Source of the DNA: Blastocatellia bacterium
GTDB lineage: Bacteria > Acidobacteriota > Blastocatellia > Chloracidobacteriales > Chloracidobacteriaceae
Assembly (NCBI GenBank): GCA_019695185.1
Contig: JAIBAN010000056.1
Location: forward strand, 1 to 54,027
Direction of reading: 5' to 3'
Length of the DNA: 54,027 nt
The translations under genes and the position numbers were made by a program. Positions 9,301-34,170 of this stretch are shown here, one piece after another. The notes under the pieces were generated by a model, which did no database searches, was not told the DNA's origin, and saw only the letters and a program-made list of their open reading frames with translations. The first letter of the stretch is position 1. Each line of letters starts with the position of its first letter.

Positions 9301-12300
9301 ATGGACCAGACTCCCCCGACTCATGCTCCCCCATCACAACGGTGCTGTCATTGTGGAGCGCAGGTTGCCACCACCTGGGAATTTTGCATGACCTGCGGGT
9401 TACGGCTGGACGAGGCCGTTCTCAAAGAGATTTCCCATATTGATTACTTGCTGCAACAGGTCCATTCGTGGCCTCAAAAACAACTGATTTCCCAACCTGT
9501 GGCGCACAAGGTAACCGGTTATTACCAGGAGAATCGACATCACCTGATTCGGTCCCTCCTGCCGCGTCCGCCGATCCCCCCAAGAGAATCCACGGAACAA
9601 CCATTTCCAAACAACCTGACTCCCCTGCCCGAATTCCCGGCAAGATTGTATCCCGGTTCCGACAGGGGGCCGGCTCCAGGCACACCACCCCGACCAGAAA
9701 CACCCCCAAGTGGGTATTCCGGTCCCAGCGGACCGGCTCCGGGAACTCCTCCCCGGCCTGAGCCGCCCCCTTTTACTCCACCGCAACCTTCCTGGATTGA
9801 ACGACTTTCCGCCCCGCAGATCCTGATGTGGATGGTCTATGGCGGAGCCGGTCTGTTTGTCATTGGAACGCTGGTTTATCTGCGGGATGTGATCGCCCAG
9901 CAATTGCGACAACCGGTTGTCCAGGCCGGACTGCTGGCACTTCTGACCATTGGGGCCTTGGCCAGTGGCATCGGATTGCTGAAACGCACGCAACAACGAT
10001 TGGCGGGCCGGGGATTGGTCCTGTTGGGGTCGCTCCTCATCCCGGTCAACCCCTGGTTTTTGGTCCATTCCGGGTTGTTGCCCAGGGGAGACAAAGCCTG
10101 GGCGGTCGGACTGTTCTGCACCGTTGCCTATGGAACCCTGACTGTCATTCTCAACGAGCCGCTCCTGCTTTATTTAGCCTTGCCAGCCCTGCTGCTTTCC
10201 GGATTTGGCATATTGAACACGGTCTTACACGCACCTCCGGACGGGTACGCCCTGCTGGCCGCCATCTTTTCCCTGGTGGTGTTGTATGCTGAAACCCAAC
10301 TGGAACAGAATCCCCCCAAGGTATCGCCCACGGGCTCGCTTCCCTTTTCCCGGCCTTTCCTGCATGTAGGGCACCTCGTATTGGCAGCAACCCTGGCCGT
10401 CTATCTGGTGGTTTACCCGGTGGTGGGTTCTCCGGGAGCGTATGAAATCCGGCTCATTATCGGAGATTCAGCAGGTGCGCTTTCACAGGCCGGGTATGTT
10501 GGCCTCCTGCTGCTGGCGGCATTGGCCTATTTTGCAACGGCCTACCAGAAACAGATGCCGGTTCTGATGTATCTGGGCACGTTGTTGACGGTTTGGGCTT
10601 ACAGCAGTGAAATTTTCTGGTTCCGGCATGACCAGATTTCCGCACTGGTTCGGGTTGGTATCTGGATGGCAGGGACCTTTCTCTTTCTGCGGCTGGTGAC
10701 GTGGTTTGAGGCGGCTGCGGCTGCGGCTCAACGGTCAGGCCGTACTTACTGGCTGGGCGGTCAGTATATTTTTGCCCTCCGGCGTTGCTCCTATGCCCTT
10801 TTTGCGGTTTCGGCCCTGCTGACGTTGACAACGATCAGATTTGGCGGATTTGATGTGTTTGGAACCGTCAACCTGTTGGTTCAATTTGAGTTTTTCCTGT
10901 TGGCACTCTATTTCGCCCACCATGCCCGCCTGCGCGCCACCATGACACTTTCTTATCTGGCAGCCTGGCTGGCGCTCTTTATCATCAGTTGGGATGTCTG
11001 TGCCTTTGCTGTCCGGCAGCAGCCTTTGGCTGGGCTCAAACTAGGTCCGTATCACCTCTGGATGCTGACAGGGTTCGCGTTTCTCGGTGCGGCTCTGGCC
11101 GTGCGCCGGAATGCCCAGCCGGTCACACAAGGTCCTGACCGTCCCCAAATTATCATTGAAACGCTGTGGGCCGTGGCGGTTCTGGTTGCCCTCGTGAATG
11201 GCGTCCACTGGTTGGACCAGCTCTCCTACGGCGACCGGTTCAGGGTTCTGGTGCTGGGCGGTCAACTGGCGGCTTTTTTTGCGATTTCAGGGCACTGCAC
11301 CCGCAACCGGTTGGCAGGAATGGCCCAGGTGTTTGTCATGGCGGTGTTTGCCACCGGCTCTTATCTTGTCTTTACCCAAGAGCATTTGGCCTGGGCCGCG
11401 CTGTGGGCGGTTGTGCTTGCGGTTGCATTTGCCGGAATGCTGAAGATGAATCCGGTGAATGATTTTCGTTGGCCAGCCGGTTTGCTGGCAACCGGAACTC
11501 TGTATGGAACCGGTTTGACAGCTTATTTGGGAATGCGCCTCCTGACCATTTCCCTTGACCGGTTCCCTCGCTTCGAAAAATACGAATTGCTTTCCGCCGG
11601 TTTGCTTGCCCTCTGGGCTTTTGTACAGGCAGGGGTCCTTTGGCATGCACCAAACGGACTGGTGTCCGGGTTTGGCATTGACACAACGGAAACCTCCGGT
11701 CCCCGTTTCCGCAAAGCCGTTGTTCTCGGTTCAGCCTTTGCCGCCTGGGTCAACGTGTTTGCCGTTGTGGCTGCCAGCGGAGATACCGGCCTGCCCCGTC
11801 TGATTCCGTTTCAGGCTTCTTTTTATGCGGTTGTTTTAACCATTGGCGGAATCGCCATTTTGGAAACAGCCAAACTGACCGGTGCCGACAACCTGTGGCA
11901 TCTGTTTGGGAAAGCGGCTTTTGCGTTCATCTGTGTGTTTGCCCCCTGGCTGGTGGTCATCTCGTTGCCTCATATTGGACCGGCCACGGCTGCATTTGGA
12001 CAGCATGCCCTGTGTGTGTTTGCGACCATTGGCGTTTTGGGCACCTATCTGGCCGAGCGGCGGCATAACCGATTTATGTATCCGGCCCTGGGCTGTTTCT
12101 TTTTGGCCTATCTCCGGATTTTGATTTTCTGCCAAATGCCGGAAACCATGTTCCCTGCAACGATTTTGTTCTATGGATTCGTGTTGCTGGTTGCCGGAGT
12201 CCAAATCCTGCCCAAGCTGGCCAGCCGGTTTGAAAGCCAGGTCCGGAAAACCGGCCAGGTGTTTTCCTGGCTGGGTTTGGTTTTGGTTGGTTTGCAGGGC

Positions 12301-12966
12301 ATCCTTTGGTTCCCTGGTTTAGCCTCCGACCAACGGTTACTGTTGGTCTCGTTGATGGTGGGTGTGGTTGCGGCAGCAGTCAGCAGTTTTGTCCTCCGCA
12401 GTGAGGGAACCCGTAGCGGGTTTGGCTGGGCTGGTTTTGGGTTGGGTAATCTGCTCTATGTCCGCTGGATTGGTTTTTTGGGGTTTGAAATCTGGAAAGA
12501 CGTCGAAATTTATGCGGTTCCCCTGGGCGTGGCCCTGCTGGTTACCGGCTATATCAACCTGCGTCGAGGTGGCGCTACCGAAACACTCGGACGTTTCTTT
12601 ATCTGGCAGGGCAGCTTGATGGCCTGCGTTCCAACCCTGCTCCATGCCTTGCAATCCAGGTTTTTCCTGGAACATGCGTCGTACCGGTCGGATATCACAC
12701 TGGACACCATTTCCCTCCTGATGATTCTGGCCGGGGTCATACTGCCATTACGCGCACCATTGATGGTGGGCATTGCTTCGCTTTCGATCCACCTGCTGGC
12801 CGTCATTATTCAGTTTGTTCCCTGGGGGCAGATTCACTATGCCGTTTACCTGTCTGTCATTGGGGCTTCCCTGTTCGTTGCCGGCTGGATGCTCAACAAC
12901 CGGCGTGAACGAATTGCCAAGACATTCAGTGAAAAATATGACCCTCCCCACAATCCGATCCCTTAA
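9301..12966 (+). CDS. Large polytopic membrane protein (about 25 TM) with N-terminal zinc-ribbon and Pro-rich tandem repeat linker
   Basis: 1221 aa. RBS GAGGAGG lies 6 nt upstream. N-terminus has CCHCGAQVATTWEFCMTCGLRL (CxxC...CxxC). This is followed by a repeated GPAPGTPPRPE(T/P)PP motif and then continuous hydrophobic helices to the C-terminus. No known family is assigned. Confidence 0.7.
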   Translation: MDQTPPTHAPPSQRCCHCGAQVATTWEFCMTCGLRLDEAVLKEISHIDYLLQQVHSWPQKQLISQPVAHKVTGYYQENRHHLIRSLLPRPPIPPRESTEQPFPNNLTPLPEFPARLYPGSDRGPAPGTPPRPETPPSGYSGPSGPAPGTPPRPEPPPFTPPQPSWIERLSAPQILMWMVYGGAGLFVIGTLVYLRDVIAQQLRQPVVQAGLLALLTIGALASGIGLLKRTQQRLAGRGLVLLGSLLIPVNPWFLVHSGLLPRGDKAWAVGLFCTVAYGTLTVILNEPLLLYLALPALLLSGFGILNTVLHAPPDGYALLAAIFSLVVLYAETQLEQNPPKVSPTGSLPFSRPFLHVGHLVLAATLAVYLVVYPVVGSPGAYEIRLIIGDSAGALSQAGYVGLLLLAALAYFATAYQKQMPVLMYLGTLLTVWAYSSEIFWFRHDQISALVRVGIWMAGTFLFLRLVTWFEAAAAAAQRSGRTYWLGGQYIFALRRCSYALFAVSALLTLTTIRFGGFDVFGTVNLLVQFEFFLLALYFAHHARLRATMTLSYLAAWLALFIISWDVCAFAVRQQPLAGLKLGPYHLWMLTGFAFLGAALAVRRNAQPVTQGPDRPQIIIETLWAVAVLVALVNGVHWLDQLSYGDRFRVLVLGGQLAAFFAISGHCTRNRLAGMAQVFVMAVFATGSYLVFTQEHLAWAALWAVVLAVAFAGMLKMNPVNDFRWPAGLLATGTLYGTGLTAYLGMRLLTISLDRFPRFEKYELLSAGLLALWAFVQAGVLWHAPNGLVSGFGIDTTETSGPRFRKAVVLGSAFAAWVNVFAVVAASGDTGLPRLIPFQASFYAVVLTIGGIAILETAKLTGADNLWHLFGKAAFAFICVFAPWLVVISLPHIGPATAAFGQHALCVFATIGVLGTYLAERRHNRFMYPALGCFFLAYLRILIFCQMPETMFPATILFYGFVLLVAGVQILPKLASRFESQVRKTGQVFSWLGLVLVGLQGILWFPGLASDQRLLLVSLMVGVVAAAVSSFVLRSEGTRSGFGWAGFGLGNLLYVRWIGFLGFEIWKDVEIYAVPLGVALLVTGYINLRRGGATETLGRFFIWQGSLMACVPTLLHALQSRFFLEHASYRSDITLDTISLLMILAGVILPLRAPLMVGIASLSIHLLAVIIQFVPWGQIHYAVYLSVIGASLFVAGWMLNNRRERIAKTFSEKYDPPHNPIP

Positions 12967-13509: not shown

Positions 13510-15510
13510 ATGCTGAACATCAACCGGGTGATTTTATACAAACACGGAATTGGATATTTTGAACGAGCCGGTTCCATCGAAGGCGACAGGGCGGTGGATT
13601 TGTTTTTCCGCACCTCGGAAGTGAGCGACGTCCTCAAATCGCTGACGGTGATTGACCTGGACGGAGGCGAGATTGCCTCGGTGTCTTATGATTCCATCAA
13701 GCCGCTCGACGAACTGCTGCGCGACATTTCCCTGTCGGTGCCCGACGACAACAGTCTGCTCGGACTCCTGCCGCAATTGAAAGGGGCACAGGTGGAAATC
13801 CAGTGTGGCGGTGAAACCCTGCAAGCCATGATTGTGGGAATTGACCAGACGACCTCCCGCTCGGCGGACGGCATTACAACCACGCCCTCCATCACGGTTT
13901 TGACTTCAGACGGGCAACTGCAATCACTTTCCATGCGCGAGATTCGTTCGATTACCCTGCTTGAGGAACGACTGCGCAAGGAATTGGAGTATTACCTCAC
14001 CATGCATCTGTCCTCCAAAAAGAAGGACATCAAGAAATTCACTGTGTTCACCCAGGGGCAAGGTACCCGCCGGTTGCAGGTGAGCTACACGCTGCCCATG
14101 CCGGTCTGGAAGGCGACCTATCGCATCATCCTGGAGCCAAACCGCGAATCCATCATTCAAGGCTGGGCCGTGGTGGACAACACCCAGGACGAAGACTGGG
14201 AAAACGTCTCGTTGTCGCTGGTTTCCGGCCTTCCGATTTCGTTTATTCACGACCTCTATACCGCCCGCTATCTGCCGCGCCCGGTGGTGGCCGTCCAGGA
14301 GGAAACCTCGCTGGCACCACCGATGATGGAGGAACCCGTCTACCGCCAGGAACGCGCCACCAAAGAAATCTATCCGGGGGCAGCCGCAGCTCCGGCTCCG
14401 GCTCCGGCAGCCGAAAGTTATGCGACCACCGGCCTGGCGCAGGAAATGTCATTTGGGCATCAGGCCAAACGCCGGACCGCTCCGCAAGGCATCAGCAGCG
14501 TCAACGTCCAAACCCGCGAGCGGGCGGTGGGCGACCTGTTCCAGTACGAAATCACAACGCCGGTCACCATCAAGCGCAACCAGTCGGCGCTGGTTCCAAT
14601 TGTGTTTAAGAAATTCAAAGGCCGGTCGGTCCTCCTCTATAATGAACAAACCCGTGCCCGTAACCCGCTGACCTGCGTCGAGATGGAAAACACCACCGAA
14701 TTGACGCTGGAAGGCGGTCCGGTGACTGTGCTCGAAGGAGACACCTATGTGGGCGAGGCCATGCTGCAAACCATGAAGCCGGAGGAAAAACGACTGGTGC
14801 CCTATTCGGTTGAGCTGGGTGTCGTGGCCGAGGCCAAAATGGAAAGCCGGCAGGAACGAACCCACTTTGTCAAAATCGTCAACGGCACGTTGGAAGCCTG
14901 TTATCTGGATGTCCGGCAAAAAGTCTATGTGTTCAACAACAAGGTCAAAGCGGAACGGACCGTTTATATTGAACATCCGCGCGACCTGGGTTGGGAACTG
15001 ACTTCCACGCCGGAACCGGTTGAGACCACGCCCACCTATTACCGGTTCAAGGCCAAACTGGAACCCGACAGCACGGCGCGGTTTACGGTTCATGAAAAGC
15101 AGGAACGGAGCCACTATTATCAACTGCGCAATATCACAAGCGATGAGTTGGAATTCTACATTGGCCAGCGTTATGTCAACCGGCAGGCGGCAGAGACCCT
15201 GCAAAAAGTGCTGGAACTCAAACAGCAAATCAACGACCTTGACCTCGACCTGGGGCGTGCGGAAGTTGAAAGCCGTGACATTGAAACCGACCAGAAACGG
15301 ATCCGCGAAAATCTGCAATCGCTCAAGGAAGGCCGGGGTGAACAGGAACTCCGCACCCGGCTGGTGGAAAAACTGCTCAGTCAGGAGGAACGTCTGGAGC
15401 AATTGCAGAAATCCATCAGCCTGCAACGGGCCGAGCGCATCACCTTGCATGAAAAAATCAATTCGCTGATTGCTGACATCCGGATGGAAATCAATCTGAA
15501 TCAGGACTGA
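13510..15510 (+). CDS. Conserved hypothetical protein with C-terminal coiled-coil (possibly DUF4139/DUF4140-like)
   Basis: 666 aa. RBS AGGGAG. The globular N-terminal two thirds are followed by a heptad-rich coiled coil (LELKQQINDLDLDLGRAEVESRDIETDQKRIRENLQSLKEG...). The family assignment is from memory only and is weak. Confidence 0.55.
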   Translation: MLNINRVILYKHGIGYFERAGSIEGDRAVDLFFRTSEVSDVLKSLTVIDLDGGEIASVSYDSIKPLDELLRDISLSVPDDNSLLGLLPQLKGAQVEIQCGGETLQAMIVGIDQTTSRSADGITTTPSITVLTSDGQLQSLSMREIRSITLLEERLRKELEYYLTMHLSSKKKDIKKFTVFTQGQGTRRLQVSYTLPMPVWKATYRIILEPNRESIIQGWAVVDNTQDEDWENVSLSLVSGLPISFIHDLYTARYLPRPVVAVQEETSLAPPMMEEPVYRQERATKEIYPGAAAAPAPAPAAESYATTGLAQEMSFGHQAKRRTAPQGISSVNVQTRERAVGDLFQYEITTPVTIKRNQSALVPIVFKKFKGRSVLLYNEQTRARNPLTCVEMENTTELTLEGGPVTVLEGDTYVGEAMLQTMKPEEKRLVPYSVELGVVAEAKMESRQERTHFVKIVNGTLEACYLDVRQKVYVFNNKVKAERTVYIEHPRDLGWELTSTPEPVETTPTYYRFKAKLEPDSTARFTVHEKQERSHYYQLRNITSDELEFYIGQRYVNRQAAETLQKVLELKQQINDLDLDLGRAEVESRDIETDQKRIRENLQSLKEGRGEQELRTRLVEKLLSQEERLEQLQKSISLQRAERITLHEKINSLIADIRMEINLNQD

Positions 15511-16945: not shown

Positions 16946-18340
16946 ATGTCAGATGGGAATTTTCCTGAGCAGAAACCTTTTGGACGCGTCAATCGCCGGA
17001 CGGCTGCCTACGGCGGCGAATCGAAGGATTGGTGGCGGACATCGCGCCGCAAATTCATCATCGGCGGGGCGGTGGCCGGGGTCGGAGCCCTGGCTGTAGC
17101 TGGAGGCGGCCTCTATTGGCTGCTCAAAGACGATACCTCCGAAGTCAATCACGACTCGCTGGACTTGCAGAAAAAACATGGCTGGAACATTGGTTCCGAG
17201 GAAAAAACCATTTCGCTTCCCAATGCCCAAACCAAGGATTCGCTGGGAACGGAAAACTGGAAGAAGTATCTGGACCAGAATGCCATGCTGGCGGCCTGGA
17301 CTCCCAAAGCACCAAACTGGGCACCCTATTTTGTGCCAACCCTGATACAGTCGCTCCAGTTTGAAACCCTGCGCAAGGTGATGACACCGGTTTTCACGCC
17401 CGATATGCAGGAAGCCTACGAACGGGCGCAATCCATCGCCAGGGATTTTCTGGCCAATGCCCAGAATGCCGCCGACACTGCCATTGTGGTGGATGTTCCC
17501 GGACGGGACAGTGTCGCGTTTGGCGCGGGCATGGCCGATTCGGGCCGCCTGATTGCCGGGTTTGACAATTTTCCGCACCCGCTGGGCGTGGTTCCCTCGC
17601 ACGAAACGCTGGGAGCGTTGCTGTATTACACAGGCGAAATCGAAACCAAACAGGCCCAGGTGAAGGATACGGCTCCGGCGGTGTTTCTGCTCGATTCAAA
17701 GCGGCTTTCCGAGTACAAGGACGAAGAAACCCAGTTTGACAACCGCTTTCTGGCCAAACTGCCCTCGGCTCAGAAACTCCGTGAAGCAGGCATCAAATCC
17801 ATTCTCTATATCACACCGGACCGGGCCCGGAGCGAGGAACTCGACGACCTGAACGAGGATTTTGTCGCATTCAAAGACCAGGGCCTGAGCGTGGCCGTCC
17901 TGCCGCTCAGTGATTTCACCCCCGTCAGCGAAACCGTGGCCCAAAAACAGGCCGACGGAACCACGCAAACCCAGGTGGTGCGGCATTATTATTATGGCGG
18001 GAACCCGCTGGGGCACACGTGGTTTTTCTACTCGTACCCGTTTTATTCGCCCTATCCGTCGTATGTGCAACGGTATCCGACCTATTCGCGCCCGCCCTCA
18101 CCGCCGCCGGTCAGCGCGCCCAGATACCTGCCTGCACCACGCCCGACCATGTTTTCAGGCACCCGCATCGGAGGTTCGGCCAGCGGGGTCGGACGCAGCA
18201 AACCGAGCGGTTTCGGTCGCACCACAGTTCGCGTTTCGCCGAGCGGTTCGGTCGTCGGAACCCGCCCTGGACGGTCGGGCTACTATTCGCCCAGCCGGAG
18301 CGGCTCGTTTGGCCGGAGCGGTTCATCTTCAGGCGGATAA
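16946..18340 (+). CDS. Membrane-anchored protein with Tyr/Pro-rich and Ser/Gly/Arg-rich low-complexity C-terminal tail (possible DUF1190/YgiB-YjfM-like partner of the ATP-grasp)
   Basis: 464 aa. RBS AAGGAGCA. One TM helix (IIGGAVAGVGALAVAGGGLYWLL). C-terminus is ...YYYGGNPLGHTWFFYSYPFYSPYPSYVQRYPTYSRPPSPPPV...GRSGSSSGG. The DUF1190 call rests on neighbourhood logic (E. coli ygiBC and yjfMC) plus weak tail similarity. Confidence 0.5.
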   Translation: MSDGNFPEQKPFGRVNRRTAAYGGESKDWWRTSRRKFIIGGAVAGVGALAVAGGGLYWLLKDDTSEVNHDSLDLQKKHGWNIGSEEKTISLPNAQTKDSLGTENWKKYLDQNAMLAAWTPKAPNWAPYFVPTLIQSLQFETLRKVMTPVFTPDMQEAYERAQSIARDFLANAQNAADTAIVVDVPGRDSVAFGAGMADSGRLIAGFDNFPHPLGVVPSHETLGALLYYTGEIETKQAQVKDTAPAVFLLDSKRLSEYKDEETQFDNRFLAKLPSAQKLREAGIKSILYITPDRARSEELDDLNEDFVAFKDQGLSVAVLPLSDFTPVSETVAQKQADGTTQTQVVRHYYYGGNPLGHTWFFYSYPFYSPYPSYVQRYPTYSRPPSPPPVSAPRYLPAPRPTMFSGTRIGGSASGVGRSKPSGFGRTTVRVSPSGSVVGTRPGRSGYYSPSRSGSFGRSGSSSGG

Positions 18341-20546: not shown

Positions 20547-21512
20547 ATGGGTGATTTCTTTCAGTTTCTGATGAAACATGGGTACTCGGTCGTGTTTGGC
20601 TGGGTGCTGGCGGAACAGTTGGGAATTCCGGTCCCGGCGGCTCCGGTCCTGCTGGCAGCGGGAGCGCTGGTGGCCTTGGGCAAAATGAACCTGCTCCTGG
20701 CAGCGGGGTTGGCCTTGGCGGCCTCGGTTTGTGCCGACCTGCTCTGGTATGAAATCGGGCGGCGGCGCGGCAGCCGGGTCTTGACCTTCCTCTGCAAAAT
20801 TTCACTGGAGCCAGACTCCTGCGTCAAAAACACTGAAAACGCCTTTGCCCGGAATGGAGCCCGGTCACTGGTTCTGGCCAAACTGGTTCCCGGACTGGGC
20901 ACGGTCGCACCGCCTCTGGCGGGAATCATGGGGATGCGGCTGGGCCGGTTCCTTTTCTTTGATGCCTGCGGGGCGCTGCTCTGGATTGGCCTTTTTATGG
21001 GGCTGGGCATGATTTTTTCCAACCAGCTTGAGCTGGTCCTCGAACTGGCTTCGCAGCTTGGTGAAAAATTCGGCCTTTTACTTGGCGGCACGCTTGCAGC
21101 CTACATTGGTTGGAAGTACATTCAGCGGCAACTGTTCATCCGTCATTTGCGTTCAGCCCGCATCACGCCCCAACAACTGAAAGAAAAACTGGATGCCGGA
21201 GAAAATGTGATTGTGGTTGACCTGCGGCACACGGCGGCACTCCAGTATGACCCGGATACCATTCCCGGAGCCAGGCACGTTGACCCCGACGAGTTGGACG
21301 AGAAAAACGACCTGATTCCACCGGACCGGGAGGTAATTCTTTTCTGCACTTGACCGAACGAAGCCAGCAGCGCCCGGGTGGCGCTCCGATTGCAGAAAAA
21401 AGGCATTACCAATGTGCGGCCCCTGCTCGGTGGCCTGGATGGCTGGCGGACCCAGAATTTTCCGGTGGTCCAACATCCGCTCACCACCGGTTCAGAAGTT
21501 GAAACCGGTTGA
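20547..21512 (+). CDS. DedA/VTT-family membrane protein fused to C-terminal rhodanese domain, with in-frame TGA (candidate Sec) in the rhodanese catalytic loop
   Basis: DedA part: MGDFFQFLMKHGYSVVFGWVLAEQLGIPVP... Rhodanese part: ...NVIVVDLRHTAALQYDPDTIPGARHVDPDEL...REVILFCT. TGA at ~21351-21353 is followed in the same frame by PNEASSARVALRLQKKGITNVRPLLGGLDGWRTQNFPV, a complete rhodanese C-terminal half. Next in-frame stop is ~21510-21512. The track ORF ends at 21353. Confidence 0.55.
21369..21385 (+). promoter_or_regulatory. Hairpin 15 nt downstream of the in-frame UGA (candidate bacterial SECIS-like element)
   Basis: AGCGCC CGGGU GGCGCU: 6-bp GC stem with a 5-nt loop containing G and U. 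Position is within the distance window used by bacterial SECIS models. Confidence 0.3.
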
Positions 21513-21553
21513 TTGCAACCGATTCCTATTCAAATTTGGAGGATGTTCCAACC

Positions 21554-22324: not shown

Positions 22325-24025
22325 GTGCTGACCTCAATGCTTGGGCAAACCATTGATAACAAAATCCTCCTGGAGTCCGTTCTGGGCGAGGGTGGAATGG
22401 GAGCGGTGTTTCGAGGGCGGCACCTGCGGTTGGACCGGACCGTCGCAGTCAAGGTCATTCAACCGGACCTAGTGGCGGACCGGCAGGCAGTTGACCGGTT
22501 CCTGCGGGAAGCCCGCACCGCCGCCCGGATTGAACATCCCAACGTCATCACCATTTTTGATTTCGGGGCTTTGACCAACGGGTGTGCCTACCTGGAAATG
22601 GAATTTATCGAAGGAGTGTCGCTGTTTCAGATTTTGGTCCGGCAAGGCGCACTCCCGCTTGAGGTGGCCTTCCCCATCATCCGGGAGGTCTGTGCAGCAG
22701 TGGAAGCGGCTCATGCCAAAGGGGTGGTCCATCGGGACCTGAAACCGGCCAACATCATGCTCAAGCAGTTGGACCGGGGTGGATGGACGGTCAAAGTGCT
22801 TGATTTTGGGCTGGCGAAAGCCATTGAAGGCTCTGACAACCTGACCAAAACCGGAGAATTTCTGGGCACTCCCATGTATATGTCACCGGAACAATGTGAC
22901 GGTGCAGAGCTTGACCAAAGGTCAGACATCTACAGCCTGGGCGTCATTTTTTATGAAATGCTGGCGGGCCGTCCGCCGTTCAAGGGACGACTGGTTGAAA
23001 TCATCAAATCGCACGCCACCAGAAACCCTGAGCCAATCTCCAATTTCAACCCGATTGTCACCAACCAGGTCAGCCAGGCGATTTTAACCGCTATGGCCAA
23101 AGACCCCAATGACCGCCCGGCAACGGTCAGGGACTATTTCGCCCGGTTGGAACAGGCGTTCACCCAACAATTGGCAACTCCGGTACAAACACTGAACCTG
23201 AATGGAATAGCCTTTGGAGCCGTGCCTGTCCCATCGTATTCCGGCACACTCAGCGAGCAACCCAGTCCAACTCCGTTTCAAACCTTAAAGGAAACACCGC
23301 CATCCAGATCAGTGGTACCGCTCTCCAGCCCTGTGGTGGAGGATACCGACCCCAAGCACTCTTCTTTTCAGCCTACCCTGAAAGAAACTCTCGCTCCTGG
23401 TACCAAAGGCGGAACCATCTCTTTGGGTTCCAGTCAACCGCTTGACAAAGAAGTAATCCCGCCTGATGCCTATCGCACCCGTCAATCGGTACCGGTTTCC
23501 ACCGGGCAATCCGGCAATCTGGCAACTTTGCGCGACCCCCTGCCGCTTCCGTTGACTGAAAATATCAAACCGACACAGGCCCGGTCCAAGCGCACACCGC
23601 TACTGGTGGGAGGATTGGTGACCAGTCTGGTTGCAGTGACTGTGGGAGGCTGGTGGATGTTTGTTCCCAAACCCGCTCCGGCGCAACCCAGCACGCCCGT
23701 TACCAAACCGGGACCGGTTGAACCGGCCAGCACCAAGTTGACCCCGGAAAACCCCGGTACCAATGTCCAACCACAACCGGCCAGCCCGGTTGAAAAAAAA
23801 CCCACCTCCGCTCCCGACCCCAGGCCGACCGCTTCGCATGAGCCTGAGCCTCCACCAATTCGCCCAGGTGACCGTCCCCCCATTCAACGACCTGAACCAC
23901 CCAAAAAGGAAAATGTCTGGAAAAAAATGGGCAAAGGGATGCTCGGCGTCCTTACCGGCGAAGATAAAAACAACAAGGACCGTGGCAAAGACAAAAAGAA
24001 TAAACACAATCGGGACCGGGATTGA
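22325..24025 (+). CDS. Membrane-anchored Hanks-type Ser/Thr protein kinase
   Basis: 566 aa. Kinase subdomains GEGGMGAVFRG, AVK, HRDLKPANIML, DFGLAK, SPEQ. Pro/Thr-rich linker, one TM helix (LLVGGLVTSLVAVTVGGWWMF), and a Lys/Asp-rich tail. GTG start. Confidence 0.85.
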   Translation: MLTSMLGQTIDNKILLESVLGEGGMGAVFRGRHLRLDRTVAVKVIQPDLVADRQAVDRFLREARTAARIEHPNVITIFDFGALTNGCAYLEMEFIEGVSLFQILVRQGALPLEVAFPIIREVCAAVEAAHAKGVVHRDLKPANIMLKQLDRGGWTVKVLDFGLAKAIEGSDNLTKTGEFLGTPMYMSPEQCDGAELDQRSDIYSLGVIFYEMLAGRPPFKGRLVEIIKSHATRNPEPISNFNPIVTNQVSQAILTAMAKDPNDRPATVRDYFARLEQAFTQQLATPVQTLNLNGIAFGAVPVPSYSGTLSEQPSPTPFQTLKETPPSRSVVPLSSPVVEDTDPKHSSFQPTLKETLAPGTKGGTISLGSSQPLDKEVIPPDAYRTRQSVPVSTGQSGNLATLRDPLPLPLTENIKPTQARSKRTPLLVGGLVTSLVAVTVGGWWMFVPKPAPAQPSTPVTKPGPVEPASTKLTPENPGTNVQPQPASPVEKKPTSAPDPRPTASHEPEPPPIRPGDRPPIQRPEPPKKENVWKKMGKGMLGVLTGEDKNNKDRGKDKKNKHNRDRD

Positions 24026-27616: not shown

Positions 27617-29581
27617 ATGGAACCGGTCATCGGCGTTATTGTGCTGGTTGTGCTTGGCTTGGTGGTTCTTTCAATCATCAATCCGTTTTATCTGATTCGT
27701 GAATCTGAAGTCGGTCTGCTGGAAAAGAAAATCATCGGCGGCCAGTTGCCTGCCGGAAGGGTGCTGGCGACCGGTCAACAGGGATTGCAGGCCCGAACCC
27801 TGACGCCAGGGCTTCACTTTTTGCCAGCCCCGTTCTATCGGGTCACGCGGTTCCAGATTATCGAGGTTCCCCAGGGTCAAATCGCTCTGGTGACGGCGAT
27901 TGACGGGGCTCCGCTCCGGACCGGACAGATGTTTGCCGACAGCGTGCCTGACCATTTCAATTTTCAGGACGGCGAAGCCTTTCTGCGCAACGGCGGCCAA
28001 AAAGGGCCGCAGGTGGACCTCCTCACGCCGGGCCGGTATCGTATCAACACCCGCTTGTTTGACCTGCAACTGGCTCCGGTGGTGTCCATTCCGCAGGGCA
28101 AAGTCGGAATGGTGACCGCAGCCGACGGGGCTCCGCTGGCAACCGGGCAAATCCTGGGCAAACGGGTTCACGGCCATAAAAACTTCCAGGATTGTCAGGC
28201 GTTCTACCGCGCTGGCGGTCAAAAAGGCCCACAGGTGGATATCCTCACGCCAGGGCAGTATTACATCAATCCCCGGGTTTTCCAGATTGTCCTGGCGGAT
28301 GCCATCAGGGTCAGCATTGGCGAAATCGGATTGATTGAAGCCTATGACGGAGGCTACCTGCGCGATGAGCAAATCCTGGGTGACAGCGTGCCGGGCCACA
28401 ATGATTTTCAGGACGGACAGGCGTTTTTGGACAACGGCGGTCAGCGTGGTCCGCAATTGGATATTCTGAAACCGGGCGGATACTACATCAACACCATGCT
28501 CTTTGGCGTAACCGTGCAGGATGCCACCGTCATTAACATCGGCGAAGTGGGCGTGATGCGTTCCAACGTCGGAATTTTGCCCCCCGTCGGTGAAGATGGA
28601 CGGACGCCCGACCTGGTGGACGAAGGCTATCGGGGTGTGCTCAAAACGGTGCTGGAACCCAATACCTATTACCTCAATCCGACTGCCCATGTGGTCTTTC
28701 CGATTTCAACCCTGAACCTGACGATTGACTGGAGCACCACCAATCGGGAAACGCCCCTCGACTCGATTACCGTTAAAAGCCGGGATGGGTTCTCCTTCCC
28801 GGTGGATGTCAAAGTGGTGATTCGGGTACCGAAGGAAAAAGCCCCCATGGTGGTTTCGAAAATCGGTTCGATTCAAAACGCAATTGACCGCGTGATTCAC
28901 CCGGCCATTGGGGCGACGTTCCGGAACAACGCCGAAAAATGCGATGCGCTCGACTTTTTGAACAATCGTTCGCAGCAGCAGGCCAACGCCAAGGAAATCA
29001 CCATTACCATGTTGCGCGAATATGGCATCGAAACCGTGGATGTCCTGGTGGGGGATGTTGGCATTCCTGAGACACTGCTCAAAACCCAGACCGACCGCTT
29101 TTTGGCCAAGGAACGGGAAAAGACCTATAAAGAGCAGAAAATAGCCGAAGACACTCGCCGCGACCTCGACGCCGCCACGGCCCAGGCCGACCAGCAAAAG
29201 AACATTGTGGCCGCCCAGGCTGCGGTGGACATCGCCAAAGCCAAAGCCCAGTCGGTTGTGGTTACCGCCGAAGCCGAGGCCAAAGCCACAGTGGTTGGTG
29301 CCGAAGCCGAAGCCACCCAAATCAAGCTCCGCGCCGAAGCCAATAAAATCGCCTTTGAAATGCTCACCGAACAGGTGGGACGCGAAGGCGTCATGATGCT
29401 TGAAACCCTCAAACTCGTGAAGGAAGGGCAAATCAAGATTACACCGGATGTCTTTATCAACGGCGAAGGTTCGCCGCTTTCGGCTCTGGCCGCCACCATG
29501 CTCAACGGGCAGATACTCAAACCAATGTTACAACTTTCGGAAAAAGCTGGAGAAGGCTCAAAAACCTCCAGTCAAGGCTAA
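27617..29581 (+). CDS. Flotillin-like SPFH/band-7 protein with triple internal repeat insertion
   Basis: 654 aa. RBS AAGGAG. N-terminal membrane hairpin. Three ~83-aa tandem repeats (VTAxDGAPLxTGQ...NFQDxxAFxxxGGQKGPQVDxLTPGxYxIN). SPFH-like core. C-terminal Ala/Glu-rich flotillin-type repeats (AEAEAKATVVGAEAEATQIKLRAEA). Confidence 0.65.
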   Translation: MEPVIGVIVLVVLGLVVLSIINPFYLIRESEVGLLEKKIIGGQLPAGRVLATGQQGLQARTLTPGLHFLPAPFYRVTRFQIIEVPQGQIALVTAIDGAPLRTGQMFADSVPDHFNFQDGEAFLRNGGQKGPQVDLLTPGRYRINTRLFDLQLAPVVSIPQGKVGMVTAADGAPLATGQILGKRVHGHKNFQDCQAFYRAGGQKGPQVDILTPGQYYINPRVFQIVLADAIRVSIGEIGLIEAYDGGYLRDEQILGDSVPGHNDFQDGQAFLDNGGQRGPQLDILKPGGYYINTMLFGVTVQDATVINIGEVGVMRSNVGILPPVGEDGRTPDLVDEGYRGVLKTVLEPNTYYLNPTAHVVFPISTLNLTIDWSTTNRETPLDSITVKSRDGFSFPVDVKVVIRVPKEKAPMVVSKIGSIQNAIDRVIHPAIGATFRNNAEKCDALDFLNNRSQQQANAKEITITMLREYGIETVDVLVGDVGIPETLLKTQTDRFLAKEREKTYKEQKIAEDTRRDLDAATAQADQQKNIVAAQAAVDIAKAKAQSVVVTAEAEAKATVVGAEAEATQIKLRAEANKIAFEMLTEQVGREGVMMLETLKLVKEGQIKITPDVFINGEGSPLSALAATMLNGQILKPMLQLSEKAGEGSKTSSQG

Positions 29582-29678
29582 CCCCCAAACGACTACAGGC
29601 GCGAGGGGTTTACCGCTTGGAAACCCAGGGCCGGGAAATCCTTGCGCCTGCCGGTTGGACCTGATTCCGTACTGCTTT

Positions 29679-30296
29679 ATGTCACATCAAAAACCCCAGG
29701 TTTTGACTGGTTTGGCTCCATTTTCAACCAGCGGGTTCGCCCAACCACAGGCGGTTTCCAATCGAACGGGCCAATTCCCCTTTTTCATTTGGATGCCCTT
29801 GGGATTGGGAGCCTTGACCCTGTTGCTGCTGTTGGGCGGGTTGGTTTGTTCCCTCTGGTTTGACGCAACCAAGGGAAATCTTTGTTTGAAAGCCGGCTTT
29901 GCAGTCACGGTCATCCTGGGTCTGTTTTCCCATCTTGGTACCGGCAGCAGGCTTTCAGCCCGCTGCCCCGACCCGGTTTTTTTCTGTCGGCTTGAACAAT
30001 CTCTCAACCGATTGCTCAAGGTATTGGTGTTGGGCTGCGGGCTGGCATTGGCAACGCTGGTTTATTCCGGAAATGGAATTCCCAGTTCAACCGACCCGCA
30101 GGCATTGTTGGCCCAACGCTCCCAATATCTGCTCTGCCAACGTGGAAAGGAAACCGCAGTTCCCCGGCAACAGTTTGTCTTGAATGGAATCTGTGCCCAG
30201 GTGGTCTGGAATTCCGCCCTGCTGCTCGGAACTACCGCTTTCCTGCTGCGCCTGCTTGGTCACCGGAATCACCTTTCACAAAGCTCTGAAGACTGA
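29679..30296 (+). CDS. Hypothetical membrane protein
   Basis: Internal start chosen to avoid overlap with the flotillin gene. Hydrophobic helices present. No RBS. Weak. Confidence 0.3.
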   Translation: MSHQKPQVLTGLAPFSTSGFAQPQAVSNRTGQFPFFIWMPLGLGALTLLLLLGGLVCSLWFDATKGNLCLKAGFAVTVILGLFSHLGTGSRLSARCPDPVFFCRLEQSLNRLLKVLVLGCGLALATLVYSGNGIPSSTDPQALLAQRSQYLLCQRGKETAVPRQQFVLNGICAQVVWNSALLLGTTAFLLRLLGHRNHLSQSSED

Positions 30297-30322
30297 AAAG
30301 GTTCTTTCAAGGAGGAATGTCC

Positions 30323-31051
30323 ATGACGAGCCCTCACTTGACTATCCGCCATGAATCACCGCCAGAACGCTGCGAAATCTGCCATCAGGCGGACCAGTTT
30401 GACCCGCAGACCGGGGTGTGTCAGCGCTGTGCCCCGTTGCTTGACCGTTCTTTAGTTGCCAAAGCCCAAATCCCATCACTTCCGCAGCCCTTTCAATCAG
30501 TTCTGGAAAGTCACCTGACGATGGGTGAAGGGATTCTGTGGACCGGGCAGCCTGCCCGATGGCATGCAATCATTTTGACTTTTTTTGCTTCCCTGTTGTT
30601 TTTCCTCCCTTTGCTTTTGGTGGGAGGGTTTTTTTCTTCTCTGAGCAAAGGCTGGATTGGAATCAACCTGGTCCTGCATCCGGTTGTCCTGCTGCTTTGG
30701 TCTGGCATAGCCGTTTTGCTCATGTACCTGCAATGGAAAAAAAACTGCTCCACGTATTATGTGGTGACAGACCGAAAACTCGCGTATCTGGAAGGAAAAT
30801 CCATCACCAAAATCCGATTGGCAACTCCGACAGACCTCCACCACCTTGAATGCCTTGAGCGAAAGAGTGGTTCAGGCAGTTTGTATTGGAAGCATTATGG
30901 AGCCGATGGTGGAACCCAGGATGAACCGGCCTTTCGCGGGTTTGAAAATATTGAACGGGTTCATGAAGTAAAAATGCTGATTCAAAGGCAGTTGCTCCGA
31001 ACCACGCCGTTTCCCGGAGACTCCGCACATGCCCCCGAAGGTTTCAACTGA
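30323..31051 (+). CDS. Zinc-ribbon + 2TM + bPH(DUF304-like) membrane protein, paralog 1
   Basis: RBS AAGGAGG lies 7 nt upstream. ERCEICHQADQFDPQTGVCQRC (CxxC-x12-CxxC). Two TM helices. YYVVTDRKLAYLEG is a bacterial PH-like motif. Confidence 0.6.
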   Translation: MTSPHLTIRHESPPERCEICHQADQFDPQTGVCQRCAPLLDRSLVAKAQIPSLPQPFQSVLESHLTMGEGILWTGQPARWHAIILTFFASLLFFLPLLLVGGFFSSLSKGWIGINLVLHPVVLLLWSGIAVLLMYLQWKKNCSTYYVVTDRKLAYLEGKSITKIRLATPTDLHHLECLERKSGSGSLYWKHYGADGGTQDEPAFRGFENIERVHEVKMLIQRQLLRTTPFPGDSAHAPEGFN

Positions 31052-31772
31052 CAGAAAACTCCTGGTTCGGCACGAAGGACTTGCCCAAAGGTGTGAAATC
31101 TGCCACCAGATTGACCTTTTTGAACCCGTTTCCGGAATTTGTCGCCGCTGCCCCCCCAGCCGGATTCCACCGCCCCAGGTGCTTGACCCGCAAAGTCCGG
31201 CATTTTCACAGCGTGTCCGGCGAATTCTGGGCCATGAACTGATGCCGAATGAACGGGTTCTTTGGGTTGGAACTCCAAGTTGGTGGTATATCCCAAGTCA
31301 AACCATTGGCTCCTTTGTTGTTTCTACCTTGATTGTCGGGTTGATTGGCTTTGGTTGTATAGTGAACCATCTGGTTTGGCTGGGAATCCTGCTCTGGGCT
31401 CTGATTGGAGGCGCTTTTCTCGATGGGCTTAACCGTTGTCTCAACCGGCCCGTTTATCTGGTTTCAGACCGGCGGGTGTTGATAGTGACCCAAAGGTTGT
31501 TCCAAACCAACTCACTTTCGTATTTTGGCTCCCAGCTCCAGCGGGTGACCCATATCCGTCATTCCGGGCAACGAAGCAGCCTTATTTTTGACCATCACCC
31601 GATACAGCCCCAAGCCGAAATTAAGGCAAATGGGATTGGGTTCAAAAGCATTCCCCAGGCCGAAACGGTGGAACAATTGATTCGAACCTATGTCCTGCCC
31701 CCGACCAGCCCGCTTGGGTTCAAAGAAAGAAACGAAGATGCCAGCCAAATCAGACTTTCAGATTCGGAATGA
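31029..31772 (+). CDS. Zinc-ribbon + 2TM + bPH-like membrane protein, paralog 2
   Basis: AQRCEICHQIDLFEPVSGICRRC. TM helices. VYLVSDRRVLIV PH-like motif. Overlaps the ends of paralogs 1 and 3. Confidence 0.6.
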   Translation: MPPKVSTDRKLLVRHEGLAQRCEICHQIDLFEPVSGICRRCPPSRIPPPQVLDPQSPAFSQRVRRILGHELMPNERVLWVGTPSWWYIPSQTIGSFVVSTLIVGLIGFGCIVNHLVWLGILLWALIGGAFLDGLNRCLNRPVYLVSDRRVLIVTQRLFQTNSLSYFGSQLQRVTHIRHSGQRSSLIFDHHPIQPQAEIKANGIGFKSIPQAETVEQLIRTYVLPPTSPLGFKERNEDASQIRLSDSE

Positions 31773-32502
31773 AAAATTACCCGAACGCTGCGAAATCTGC
31801 CATCAGGCGGACCAATTTGACCCGCAGACCGGAGTGTGTTTGCGGTGTCAAAACCTGCCTCAGCCGCCAGTATCGGAAAACTTGCGGACTGCCATCAGGT
31901 TTCGATTTCTGCAAATCGGGATGCTCCTGTTCCTGGCTGGAAGTGTGGGATTGGGGTTGGTTGGACTTTTATTCCTGAGCCATAGCTGGATATGGTGTGG
32001 TATGGCAGGGTTTCTGGGAATCTGGGGAATGGGGTGGATCAGTTTGGACCAGTCATCCCGGAGGCAAAAGAAAAAAACGACCACCGAAAAAGCGCCGGAC
32101 TCAAGCCTTGAACCCACCCCAATCACCTTGGCGGTCGTGGTTCCCTGGGTTGCCACATACCGAAAACTCTATGAATCGGTTGCATTCTTTTTCATGGTCC
32201 TGGGAATGATTGGAATCCCGTTGGTATTGCTCTCAACGGCTTGGCAAAAAGGCTCCTATCCTACGAGTCAGGACACCACCGTGTTTGCCCCGCAGGAACA
32301 TTATTATTTCACCGACCATGGTAAGCAGATAGAAGTCACTCGCCTCAGGTATGTTCTGAATGGATTTCTCATTTTCGGTTCCTGGCACTGTTTCACCATG
32401 GCTTTTGCACTCATGATGATTCAGAAACTGGCGTATGAAAAACCTCTGGGGAAGCCGGAGGAGGGAAAGTCGGGAAATCCATATTCCAAGGCCAGCCCGT
32501 GA
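31738..32502 (+). CDS. Zinc-ribbon membrane protein, paralog 3 (divergent C-terminal part)
   Basis: PERCEICHQADQFDPQTGVCLRC is near-identical at DNA level to paralog 1. Four TM helices. Confidence 0.55.
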   Translation: MPAKSDFQIRNEKLPERCEICHQADQFDPQTGVCLRCQNLPQPPVSENLRTAIRFRFLQIGMLLFLAGSVGLGLVGLLFLSHSWIWCGMAGFLGIWGMGWISLDQSSRRQKKKTTTEKAPDSSLEPTPITLAVVVPWVATYRKLYESVAFFFMVLGMIGIPLVLLSTAWQKGSYPTSQDTTVFAPQEHYYFTDHGKQIEVTRLRYVLNGFLIFGSWHCFTMAFALMMIQKLAYEKPLGKPEEGKSGNPYSKASP

Positions 32503-32567: not shown

Positions 32568-33137
32568 TTAGCGGACGCGTTTGACAAATTCACCGGTGGT
32601 TGTGTCCACCAGAATCCGTTCACCGTTTTCGAGGTAGGTTGGAACTTTAATCACCGCGCCGGTGTTGAGGGTGGCGTTTTTGAGGGTTTTTCCGGTGGCC
32701 GTGTCGCCCCGTGAGCCAGGTTCGGTTTCCACCACGTCAAATTCCAGAAATTGCGGCAGTTCGACACCGACCACTTCCCCGTTGAAAACAATGGATTTAA
32801 GAATCGCATTTTCGGCCAGATAGGGCACGATGTCTTCCATTTTTTCGGTGGGGAGGGCGAACTGTTCGTATGTTTCCTGGTCCAAAAAGTGGTATTCCCC
32901 ACCGGATTCATACAAATACTGCGCTTCGCGCTGCTCAATGTCGGGTTCGTCAAACTTGTCGCCCGCCTTGAAGGTTTTTTCAAATACAGCACCGGAAATC
33001 ATGTGCCGGACCTTGGCTTTGACAAGCGTCGAAGCTCCCCGTGCCGACGGGGAGTGAACCGTAAAATCAGCGACGGCAAAAGGCTCGCCGTCAATTAAAA
33101 TCTGTGCGCCGCGCTTAAAATCAGCGGTCGTAAGCAT
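32568..33137 (-). CDS. efp: Elongation factor P
   Basis: Start at internal M (MLTTADFKRGAQILIDGEPFAV...). Full-length alignment to EF-P (...GDTATGKT...ATLNTGAVIKVP...). The beta3-beta4 loop HSPSARGAST carries Arg, not the canonical Lys. Confidence 0.9.
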   Translation of the reverse strand: MLTTADFKRGAQILIDGEPFAVADFTVHSPSARGASTLVKAKVRHMISGAVFEKTFKAGDKFDEPDIEQREAQYLYESGGEYHFLDQETYEQFALPTEKMEDIVPYLAENAILKSIVFNGEVVGVELPQFLEFDVVETEPGSRGDTATGKTLKNATLNTGAVIKVPTYLENGERILVDTTTGEFVKRVR

Positions 33138-33240
33138 AACGTATTCCTCTATTTTATAATTTAACCGGCTGTTGCCCCAAACTGCGACAACAGCCTTGTA
33201 TGTGTGGGCGCAAGTCAACCACAACTGAGCTGGACTCTCA

Positions 33241-33436
33241 AGGACTGAGGACAAATCCAGGACTGAGGACTGAGGACTGAGGTTAAAGTTGTTTGGGTGA
33301 TTTCCAAGACCATTCTCAGTCCTCAGTTCTCAGTCCTCAGTCCTCAGTTCTCAGTCCTCAGTCCTCAGTCCTCAGTCCTCAGTCCTCAGTCCTCAGTCCT
33401 CAGTCCTCAGTTCTCAGTCCTCAGTCCTCAGTCCTG
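33241..33436. repeat. Largest inverted heptamer array: (GGACTGA)x4 and (TCAGTCC/TCAGTTC)x~18
   Basis: Located between the ECF sigma stop and the efp start (both minus strand). Confidence 0.85.
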
Positions 33437-33440
33437 AACC

Positions 33441-34001
33441 TTATTTCTTTTCCAACTCCCGTTGGAGCCACGCCCGTGCCAGACTCCATTCGCGTTTGAT
33501 GGTTGGAGTTGAAACACCAACCACCTCGGCGGTTTCCTCAACGGTCAGTCCACCAAAATAGCGCAGTTCGACAATCCAGCTTTTCCGGGGGTCAAACGCC
33601 GCCAGAGCGGTCAGGGCTTCGTCGAGGGCGACAACCTCCGCCGGCTTCTCGACCGAAACCGGCAGGCAATCATCCAACGGTGAGAGCGGACCGCCGTCCC
33701 GCTTTTGCCGGACCTGACCACGGGCATGGTCTACCAGAATGTGACGCATCACCTGGGCTGCAATGCGAAAGAAATGTGCCCGGTCCTGCACGCCACCGCC
33801 CTCGTACTCAACCAACCGCAGATAGGCTTCGTGAACCAGTGCGGTGGGCTGCAAGGTATGGTCAGGGCGCTCCGCCTGGAGGTATCTTCCGGCCAGTCGC
33901 CGCAGTTCGTCATAAACCAGCGGCCAGATTTGATTCATGACATCCTGGTTGCCATTGCGAAACTCAACCAAAAGTTGCGTAATGCTTGGGGTGGTGGACA
34001 T
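33441..34001 (-). CDS. ECF sigma factor, STK-associated type (ECF43-like / TIGR02999-like)
   Basis: Start at MSTTPSITQLLVEFRNGNQDVMNQIWPLVYDELRRLAGRYL...HTLQPTALVHEAYLRL (region 2). ...LTVEETAEVVGVSTPTIKREW (region 4). The upstream extension of the track ORF only translates TTGAGAA heptamer repeats. Confidence 0.85.
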   Translation of the reverse strand: MSTTPSITQLLVEFRNGNQDVMNQIWPLVYDELRRLAGRYLQAERPDHTLQPTALVHEAYLRLVEYEGGGVQDRAHFFRIAAQVMRHILVDHARGQVRQKRDGGPLSPLDDCLPVSVEKPAEVVALDEALTALAAFDPRKSWIVELRYFGGLTVEETAEVVGVSTPTIKREWSLARAWLQRELEKK

Positions 34002-34009
34002 AGGGCAGC

Positions 34010-34170
34010 AGCAATTGAGAATTGAGAATTGAGAATTGAGAATGGGAATGAAGGGATTGGTATTCGTACCCGGATTCTTGCATTCACTCTCTGATTTCTG
34101 TTCCGGAACATCAACAGTGTTTTCTGTCTCAATTCTCAATTCTCAATTCTCAATTCGTAATTCTCAATTA
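34010..34170. repeat. TTGAGAA-family inverted heptamer arrays in the divergent sigma/STK intergenic region
   Basis: (AATTGAG)x4 ... ~85 nt ... (CTCAATT)x5. Confidence 0.85.

Follow-up and report, generated by a model that had tools for sequence, protein, structure and literature searches.

We analyzed here a 54,027-bp stretch of DNA (the window), which is the entire contig of a Blastocatellia metagenome-assembled genome (MAG), with emphasis on one gene that joins a DedA/VTT membrane domain to a rhodanese-like domain and probably encodes a selenoprotein. The gene starts at ATG 20547 on the forward strand, where its homologues also begin, and GTG 20505 further upstream is a possible alternative start. 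The open reading frame (ORF) is interrupted by an in-frame TGA at 21351-21353, right after the residues ...PPDREVILFCT, and reading on past this codon without any shift of frame encodes PNEASSARVALRLQKKGITNVRPLLGGLDGWRTQNFPVV... up to a second TGA at 21510-21512; the full translation after the first TGA is PNEASSARVALRLQKKGITNVRPLLGGLDGWRTQNFPVVQHPLTTGSEVETG. The read-through product has 321 aa, of which gene callers give 268 aa only. With the internal stop set to Cys, both domains were found by Pfam above their cut-offs, namely VTT_dom/DedA (PF09335, residues 29-154, 52.2 bits against 33.9) and Rhodanese (PF00581, residues 207-301, 47.4 bits against 22.2), and the rhodanese match runs across the UGA. 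An earlier note on this DNA had described a DedA-rhodanese fusion whose ORF halts at a TGA around 21351-21353 after ...EVILFCT and whose frame continues into the second half of a rhodanese domain as far as a stop near 21510; the fusion, the exact position of the TGA and the continuation were all recovered in the present analysis. All features of the gene are collected in Table 1.

The active-site loop of the read-through product is C267-T-U269-P-N-E-A-S-S, in which U stands for the predicted selenocysteine (Sec). Neither the Cys nor the Sec is followed by an Arg at +6, and the C-X5-R loop of the Cdc25/Acr2 type is absent from the protein. Because the loop has a Glu and lacks this Arg, neither thiosulfate transfer of the GlpE type nor chemistry of the Cdc25/Acr2 type is implied. 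The 268-aa product (P0001) has no NCBI protein record and is present only in Logan assemblies; the deposited annotation probably flags the gene as a pseudogene.

Homologues of the gene and the residue at codon 269

A protein search returned 3824 homologues, most of which come from Acidobacteriota MAGs and carry the name 'DedA family protein/thiosulfate sulfurtransferase GlpE'. The motif C-x-C-P-N-E is present in 114 of the best 120 of these 3824 proteins, and C267 and C269 are invariant in an alignment of 49 homologues. The TGA of the window is aligned with the second Cys of this motif, C269, which places the predicted Sec at an invariant Cys position of the rhodanese loop. The DedA-rhodanese fusions with Cys (JGI name 'membrane protein DedA.../rhodanese-related sulfurtransferase') have the same architecture and length as the window protein, are 51-58% identical to it and share C83, C92, C267 and P270 with it. 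They differ from it in having Cys for the UGA, in being without a constrained hairpin and in having a much freer S-A-R-V-A-L helix. The 49-sequence alignment also contains an invariant Cys pair in the DedA domain, C83/C92 (20793-20795 and 20820-20822; motif LC(K/R)ISLEPDSCV), which could partner the C-x-U loop in redox reactions.

Exactly 268 aa were found in three homologues, that is in the window product itself and in P0098 and P0111, which are only 62-63% identical to it. The DNA of these two proteins (L001 and L002) has TGA at codon 269, followed by the frame PNEATSARVALLL...GGL..W and by the same hairpin as in the window. For a wider survey, one genome per GTDB species was scanned with a DNA pattern for C-x-U-P-N-E-A-x-S-A; at least 120 loci matched, where about 35 chance matches are expected by our own arithmetic. 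The set of 119 Sec forms used below consists of 116 genome loci among the matches listed, two Logan contigs and the window, whose own genome is absent from these matches. At least 119 distinct sequences (at least 118 besides the window) therefore have the TGA and then the C-terminal half of a rhodanese domain in frame. Codon 269 was found to be either Cys or TGA in the orthologues, and none of them just stops at this position.

The history of the codon within the lineage was followed in two further assemblies. The identical TGA is present in L003 (SRR1027651), a Logan assembly made independently for the organism of the window, and the TGA is retained in L245 (SRR26871262), which comes from another sample and has about 92% nucleotide identity with the window; its recurrence in independent assemblies of the same lineage and of a relative speaks against a sequencing error. 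Upstream of the TGA, L245 differs from the window by 59 synonymous and 9 non-synonymous changes, whereas in codons 270-309 there are 7 synonymous and 0 non-synonymous ones. The hairpin region shows no difference, and three replacements are all located in the C-terminal tail.

The fold was taken from an AlphaFold2 model of the Cys homologue P0002 (pLDDT 84), in which the DedA part is helical up to about residue 202 and is followed by the rhodanese α/β domain with a central strand at residues 262-266, the loop C267-T-C269-P-N-E and a helix from residue 273. Comparison with the PDB by Foldseek gave single-domain rhodaneses, with a target-normalised TM-score of up to 0.88 and rmsd of 1.5-2.7 Å. 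Rhodaneses of the GlpE/PspE type (PDB 6mxv, 3gk5 and 3tp9) share this fold and likewise hold the Cys/Sec in the loop between strand and helix; the window loop differs from theirs by its two reactive residues (C-x-U), its Pro and its Glu, and by being without the basic residues of the thiosulfate loop. The GlpE family model NF001195 gives the window protein 24.7 bits against a cut-off of 102, and the 'GlpE' in the names of the Cys homologues is to be read at domain level only.

The hairpin downstream of the UGA

The hairpin at 21369-21385 has a 6-bp stem (AGCGCC/GGCGCU), the loop CGGGU and a folding energy of -9.9 kcal/mol; it starts 15 nt past the UGA, and the spacing from the UGA to the loop is 21 nt. 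The stem, loop and distance given in the earlier note were thus confirmed. In the published model of the bacterial selenocysteine insertion sequence (bSECIS), the loop has 3-9 nt, the stem has 4-16 bp, the spacing from the UGA is 16-37 nt, the minimum free energy is -7.5 kcal/mol or lower, and a G stands within the first two loop positions and is followed by G or U (PMC13188914). The window hairpin agrees with this model on every point. With the bSECIS consensus (Zhang and Gladyshev model, via PMC13188914; prototype E. coli fdh) it shares the site in the coding region just past the UGA, the small apical loop with G and then G/U, a GC-rich stem of 6-7 bp, the 21-nt spacing and the energy limit; it differs from the E. 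coli SECIS elements in showing no sequence similarity to them.

The evidence for the hairpin as an RNA element comes from a comparison with Cys forms, which were collected as a control by the same DNA pattern with TGY for TGA and gave 85 usable rhodanese sequences after filtering. A perfect 6-bp stem in register was found in 95 of the 119 Sec forms (23 more have 5 bp) and in 14 of the 85 Cys forms. The difference was also seen among sequences encoding one and the same peptide: for SARVAL the perfect stem is present in 64/64 Sec forms and 4/10 Cys forms, and for SARAAL in 29/29 and 5/12, respectively. At the third-codon positions +23, +29 and +32 the commonest base accounts for 98%, 99% and 93% of the Sec forms as against 55%, 53% and 54% of the Cys forms, and the synonymous sites flanking the stem are unconstrained in the Sec forms. 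The RNAalifold consensus hairpin has a value of -8.68 for the Sec forms and of -0.05, effectively none, for the Cys forms.

The loop follows the same pattern. The Arg in it is encoded by CGU or CGG in all but nine of the 119 Sec forms (110 sequences), and these nine have AGU, AGG or GGU instead; CGC never occurs at this position in the Sec forms, yet it is the commonest Arg codon there in the Cys forms. The second base of the loop is therefore always G and the next is U or G. Over the alignment of the 119 sequences 92.7% of the stem cells are paired, and double-sided changes were found in 4 of the 7 stem pairs. Examples of compensatory pairs are columns 18/36 (CG in 55 sequences, GC in 24) and columns 21/33 (CG in 107, UA in 6). 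The observed pairing together with covariation was reached by 0 of 500 shuffles, and each slid register was far worse. On these comparisons the hairpin is best described as a constrained RNA element, conserved, covarying and specific to the TGA forms.

The same comparison has a consequence at the protein level. The helix after the active site appears to be locked to S-A-R-(V/A)-A-L by the RNA stem in the Sec forms and is free in the Cys forms, which makes this family a clean natural case of a SECIS element constraining protein sequence. The rest of the window was also surveyed for selenoprotein candidates, and just two other TGA-plus-hairpin sites were found, both in non-gene frames.

Decoding of the UGA and alternative explanations

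From this sequence evidence we consider the DedA-rhodanese gene to be, with a probability of about 0.88, an intact and bona fide selenoprotein gene with a CxU module. The UGA at codon 269 would be decoded as Sec in translation, and the RNA signature suggests that the hairpin would act as a SECIS element that recruits SelB with Sec-tRNA(Sec) to the ribosome. Such recruitment is the standard mechanism in bacteria.

The earlier note had also stated that selenoproteins of the rhodanese type are a described family, and the literature bears this out. Already in 2007 a sulfurtransferase selenoprotein related to rhodanese was described together with a UxU variant (PMC1976440), and the 2026 catalogue of prokaryotic selenoproteins contains five rhodanese-like forms, of which form 3 is the CxU form, NF041203 (PMC13188914). 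This model, 'rhodanese_LYCAU, rhodanese-related (seleno)protein' with 126 positions, is the best NCBIfam hit of the window protein, which scores 76.8 bits where the cut-off is 115, and the motif C-x-U-P-N-E is common to form 3 and to the window protein (F-C-T-U-P-N-E). The members of NF041203 are single-domain proteins of about 126 aa, whereas the window rhodanese forms the C-terminal part of a DedA membrane protein with 321 aa. The window protein lies below the curated threshold and has a different architecture. A stand-alone protein from our scan (L010) passes the cut-off with 155.9 bits and has the hairpin AGCGCC-CGUGU-GGCGUC at the same offset as in the window, with 5 of the 6 stem pairs. 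Because NF041203 is the best hit and the hairpin of L010 is alike, the window rhodanese is taken to be a close relative of this known selenoprotein family.

Other known families are further away. TsoB (NF045694), a selenoprotein resembling a rhodanese/DsbD fusion, likewise has a Sec-bearing rhodanese joined to a membrane protein, but it differs from the window protein in its membrane partner, in its motif UxxxxU and in having two Sec; NF045694 is absent from the NCBIfam hits of the window, and the stand-alone relatives reach only 19.5-22.4 bits against its cut-off of 805. The window protein also stays below the equivalog cut-offs of the DedA models UptA (NF052604, 47.7 against 250) and PRK10847 (55.1 against 236). 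A full-text literature search, a limited negative in itself, did not find DedA, VTT or SNARE-associated proteins combined with selenoproteins, and no such fusion was seen in the listed part of the papers naming both 'DedA' and 'selenocysteine', as judged by title and abstract.

Several results weigh against the selenoprotein reading. No selA, selB, selD or tRNA-Sec was found within the 54-kb window: Pfam analysis of the 30 large ORFs gave no domain of SelA, SelB or SelD, and the tRNA search found the contig to be without any tRNA. No tRNA-Sec lies beside the 120 Sec-form loci, and no selD match was obtained in the fetched loci by tblastn with E. coli SelD. Of 200 shuffles of the 76-nt stretch with the hairpin, 194 fold at least as well as the stretch itself (z = +1.7), and with a simplified bSECIS filter 42 of the 2039 TGA triplets in the window (about 2%) are found to precede a passing hairpin. 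The seventh pair, a C-G in many homologues, is absent from the window, whose stem has a C·C mismatch there, and no Rfam family matches the hairpin (21250-21520; two chance hits with E above 2). The position of the UGA in the catalytic loop is also ambiguous. In the alignment with 6mxv, the best sequence match, U269 is aligned without gap with the catalytic Cys of CGGGFRS; the alignments with 3tp9 and 3nhv and the strand and helix limits of the AlphaFold2 model place the first Cys, not U269, at the catalytic position. U269 is thus the canonical catalytic residue itself or else lies two residues inside an extended loop, and both placements had been allowed for beforehand in the earlier note. U269 as outright the canonical catalytic Cys was rejected as unproven, as the alignments and the model limits disagree.

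As to the folding results, single-sequence folding is uninformative here, and the significance of the hairpin comes from the comparative data only. As to the machinery, the support is indirect: the Sec trait is on record for Acidobacteria (PMC1794560 Table 2), among them Occallatibacter riparius (PMC12013277), and the TGA form also occurs in Pyrinomonadaceae, a family of Blastocatellia.

Among the other explanations the best survivor, which we still regard as unlikely, is that the UGA is recoded to a residue other than Sec, by SECIS/SelB-like insertion of Cys or by near-cognate read-through with Trp or Cys, or that the Sec machinery was lost and the gene is a recent relic making mainly the 268-aa DedA protein. 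The Sec machinery not being observed on the 54-kb contig is compatible with this. So is the frequent interconversion of the two forms, which are interleaved on a neighbour-joining tree of the rhodanese domain, a rough one that implies at least 28 changes; because Sec and Cys interconvert so often, lineages in transition must exist, and the interleaving fits the known dynamic exchange of Sec and Cys. The loop (G, then G/U), the spacing and the stem, however, agree with the SelB-dependent bSECIS consensus, and in the lineage of the window purifying selection is seen on the codons downstream as well as on the TGA and the hairpin. Relatives within Blastocatellia (Pyrinomonadaceae L039 and L080) share the TGA form. 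TGA is otherwise an ordinary stop in the window: it terminates 18 of the 32 large ORFs, the DedA-rhodanese gene likewise ends in TGA, and a global reassignment of UGA was rejected on this count.

A pseudogene is a very improbable explanation. It would mean that a nonsense change from TGC or TGT to TGA killed the rhodanese domain and left the downstream frame as a decaying remnant, and gene callers do end the ORF at the TGA, no NCBI protein exists for the gene, as would be consistent with a pseudogene flag, and the Sec machinery was not seen in the window. It is effectively refuted by the TGA in at least 118 other sequences of several phyla with the downstream half of the protein conserved, by the absence of non-synonymous changes against 7 synonymous ones in the downstream domain codons of L245, and by a hairpin constrained at synonymous sites that occurs only with the TGA forms. 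The preference of the earlier note for Sec over a nonsense pseudogene is therefore backed by the shared TGA, the Sec-specific hairpin and the purifying selection downstream. Taken together, the TGA in L003 and L245, the substitution pattern and the normal use of TGA as a stop leave effectively no room for a pseudogene, for an error of sequencing or for a reassigned code.

The last two explanations have next to no chance of being correct. An error of sequencing or assembly at a Cys codon needs one base only (TGC or TGT to TGA) in a sequence that comes from a MAG, yet the same TGA is found in L003, in the diverged L245 and in at least 118 other assemblies. A split into two products, with a DedA protein terminating at the TGA and a 44-aa protein from the GTG at 21378, whose ORF does exist in the same frame, would separate the central strand of the rhodanese fold from the helix of the active site, and the Cys homologues are always a single polypeptide.

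Spread of the predicted Sec module, its proposed role and other genes of the contig

The selenoprotein form is found, among the matches listed, mainly in Acidobacteriota, Rokubacteria/Methylomirabilota, Myxococcota and deltaproteobacterial MAGs; within Acidobacteriota it occurs in Bryobacterales, Acidoferrales, Terriglobia and Pyrinomonadaceae. Complete chromosomes with the TGA form exist as well, for example OZ255834.1 and OY969786.1. At least 86 of the Sec-form sequences are clearly DedA fusions like that of the window, and about 10 further DedA fusions among the matches listed are incomplete, three of them through frameshifts and the others because the contig ends. The DedA part is frameshifted in the TGA-form loci L042, L068 and L092 and has an in-frame TAG in L091; these lesions may be assembly indel errors, and occasional real pseudogenes among them are possible.

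At least 10 Sec modules are fused to a CPA1 Na+/H+ exchanger (L008, L015, L017, L026, L036, L054, L059, L083, L088 and L112; the module of L008 lies around 3833-3886 on the reverse strand), and two representatives gave both Na_H_Exchanger and Rhodanese in Pfam. These CPA1-type Na+/H+ (K+/H+) exchangers have about 500-580 aa, with the UGA-plus-hairpin module at the C-terminus and the motif L-x-C-A-U-P-N-E. The matches listed also include a few small stand-alone Sec rhodaneses of 110-150 aa (L010 at 5711-5764 (+), L038 at 1125-1178 (-), L025 and L121), some with N-termini that resemble signal peptides, because of which the module probably works on both sides of the membrane.

The module thus occurs in three contexts, which are stand-alone or secreted proteins, DedA proteins and CPA1 Na+/H+ exchangers, and being found in all of them the Sec rhodanese can be regarded as a portable module. 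Clustering of the neighbourhoods of 85 DedA-type Sec loci gave no conserved operon partner; the neighbours (SDR, nitroreductase-like, YceI-like and MarR proteins) reflect synteny at lineage level only.

In the window, the product would be a 321-aa inner-membrane protein with an N-terminal transporter-like DedA/VTT domain, a basic linker and a C-terminal rhodanese domain, which is likely to be cytoplasmic because of the basic linker and the positive-inside rule. Sec269 would most likely be the nucleophile that carries a sulfane sulfur or a selenium atom, or it may take part in a selenenylsulfide cycle with Cys267, and the Sec rhodanese would serve the membrane domain as a catalytic or redox-sensing head. 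We infer from the sequence that the transporter-like domain would bear a Sec-based head for sulfur, selenium or redox reactions; a role of the DedA fusion in trafficking of sulfur or selenium is speculation. A link between DedA and selenite has reportedly been seen in Ralstonia and could connect to the DedA-Sec fusion.

A wider proposal, which we put forward tentatively and with considerable doubt, is that the form fused to DedA has gone unrecognised as a selenoprotein and may even be a dominant one in soil Acidobacteriota, Rokubacteria/Methylomirabilota and Myxococcota, being routinely annotated as truncated or as a pseudogene, and that a portable cassette of UGA, SECIS and helix, placed on at least three contexts, may link membrane transport with a sensor or relay for redox state or sulfane sulfur that depends on selenium. 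The DedA-Sec gene, which standard pipelines cut at the UGA or drop, is present in at least 86 genomes at species level and probably in many others. Because the pipelines truncate the gene and the curated NF041203 model misses the DedA form, the selenoproteomes of soil are likely to be under-counted. The three architectures also suggest that a bacterial Sec codon and its SECIS can travel together as a unit at domain level, and a Sec head on DedA proteins and on cation/proton transporters may give a lead to what these poorly understood proteins sense or carry. A Sec rhodanese is not surprising in itself; what is worth attention is the breadth of the mis-annotated DedA form, the constraint of the SECIS on the protein and the reuse in three architectures.

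Table 1. Positions of the DedA-rhodanese gene, its parts and other features in the 54,027-bp window
Feature	Coordinates	Strand	Basis
Predicted selenoprotein gene, 321-aa DedA-rhodanese, residue 269 = Sec	20547..21512	+	Translation
DedA/VTT membrane domain, aa 29-154, with invariant C83 and C92	20631..21008	+	Pfam PF09335, alignment
Rhodanese-like domain, aa 207-301, UGA inside	21165..21449	+	Pfam PF00581, NCBIfam, Foldseek
Cys267 codon TGC, first residue of C-x-U	21345..21347	+	Invariant in 49 aligned homologues
ACT codon	21348..21350	+	Sequence
UGA predicted to be read as Sec, U269	21351..21353	+	Aligned with Cys269; TGA shared by other loci
Putative bacterial SECIS-type hairpin, within S-A-R-V-A-L codons	21369..21385	+	Fold, bSECIS criteria, covariation
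Predicted true stop TGA	21510..21512	+	Sequence
Signalling genes	1261-4710 (-), 22325-24025, 34271-37597, 44854-45864 (-), 48664-51117, 33441-34139 (-)		
ORFs without Pfam match	9301-12966, 13510-15510, 16946-18340, 29448-32502		

The remaining part of the contig, whose TsaD is deposited as MBX7222177.1, was surveyed for other genes. A DUF4184 ORF neighbours the DedA-rhodanese gene. At E <= 1e-4, Pfam matched nothing in several long ORFs, namely those of 1221, 666 and 464 aa and a row of four with 244-282 aa. Signalling genes are numerous on the contig and encode a CHAT-TPR protein, two Ser/Thr kinases, an FhaA/FHA protein, a SpoIIE-type phosphatase and an ECF sigma factor. The EF-P ORF at 32568-33254 (-) is listed with 228 aa from a TTG, and its Pfam EF-P domains begin from residue 42; the true start is probably about 40 codons downstream of the listed TTG.

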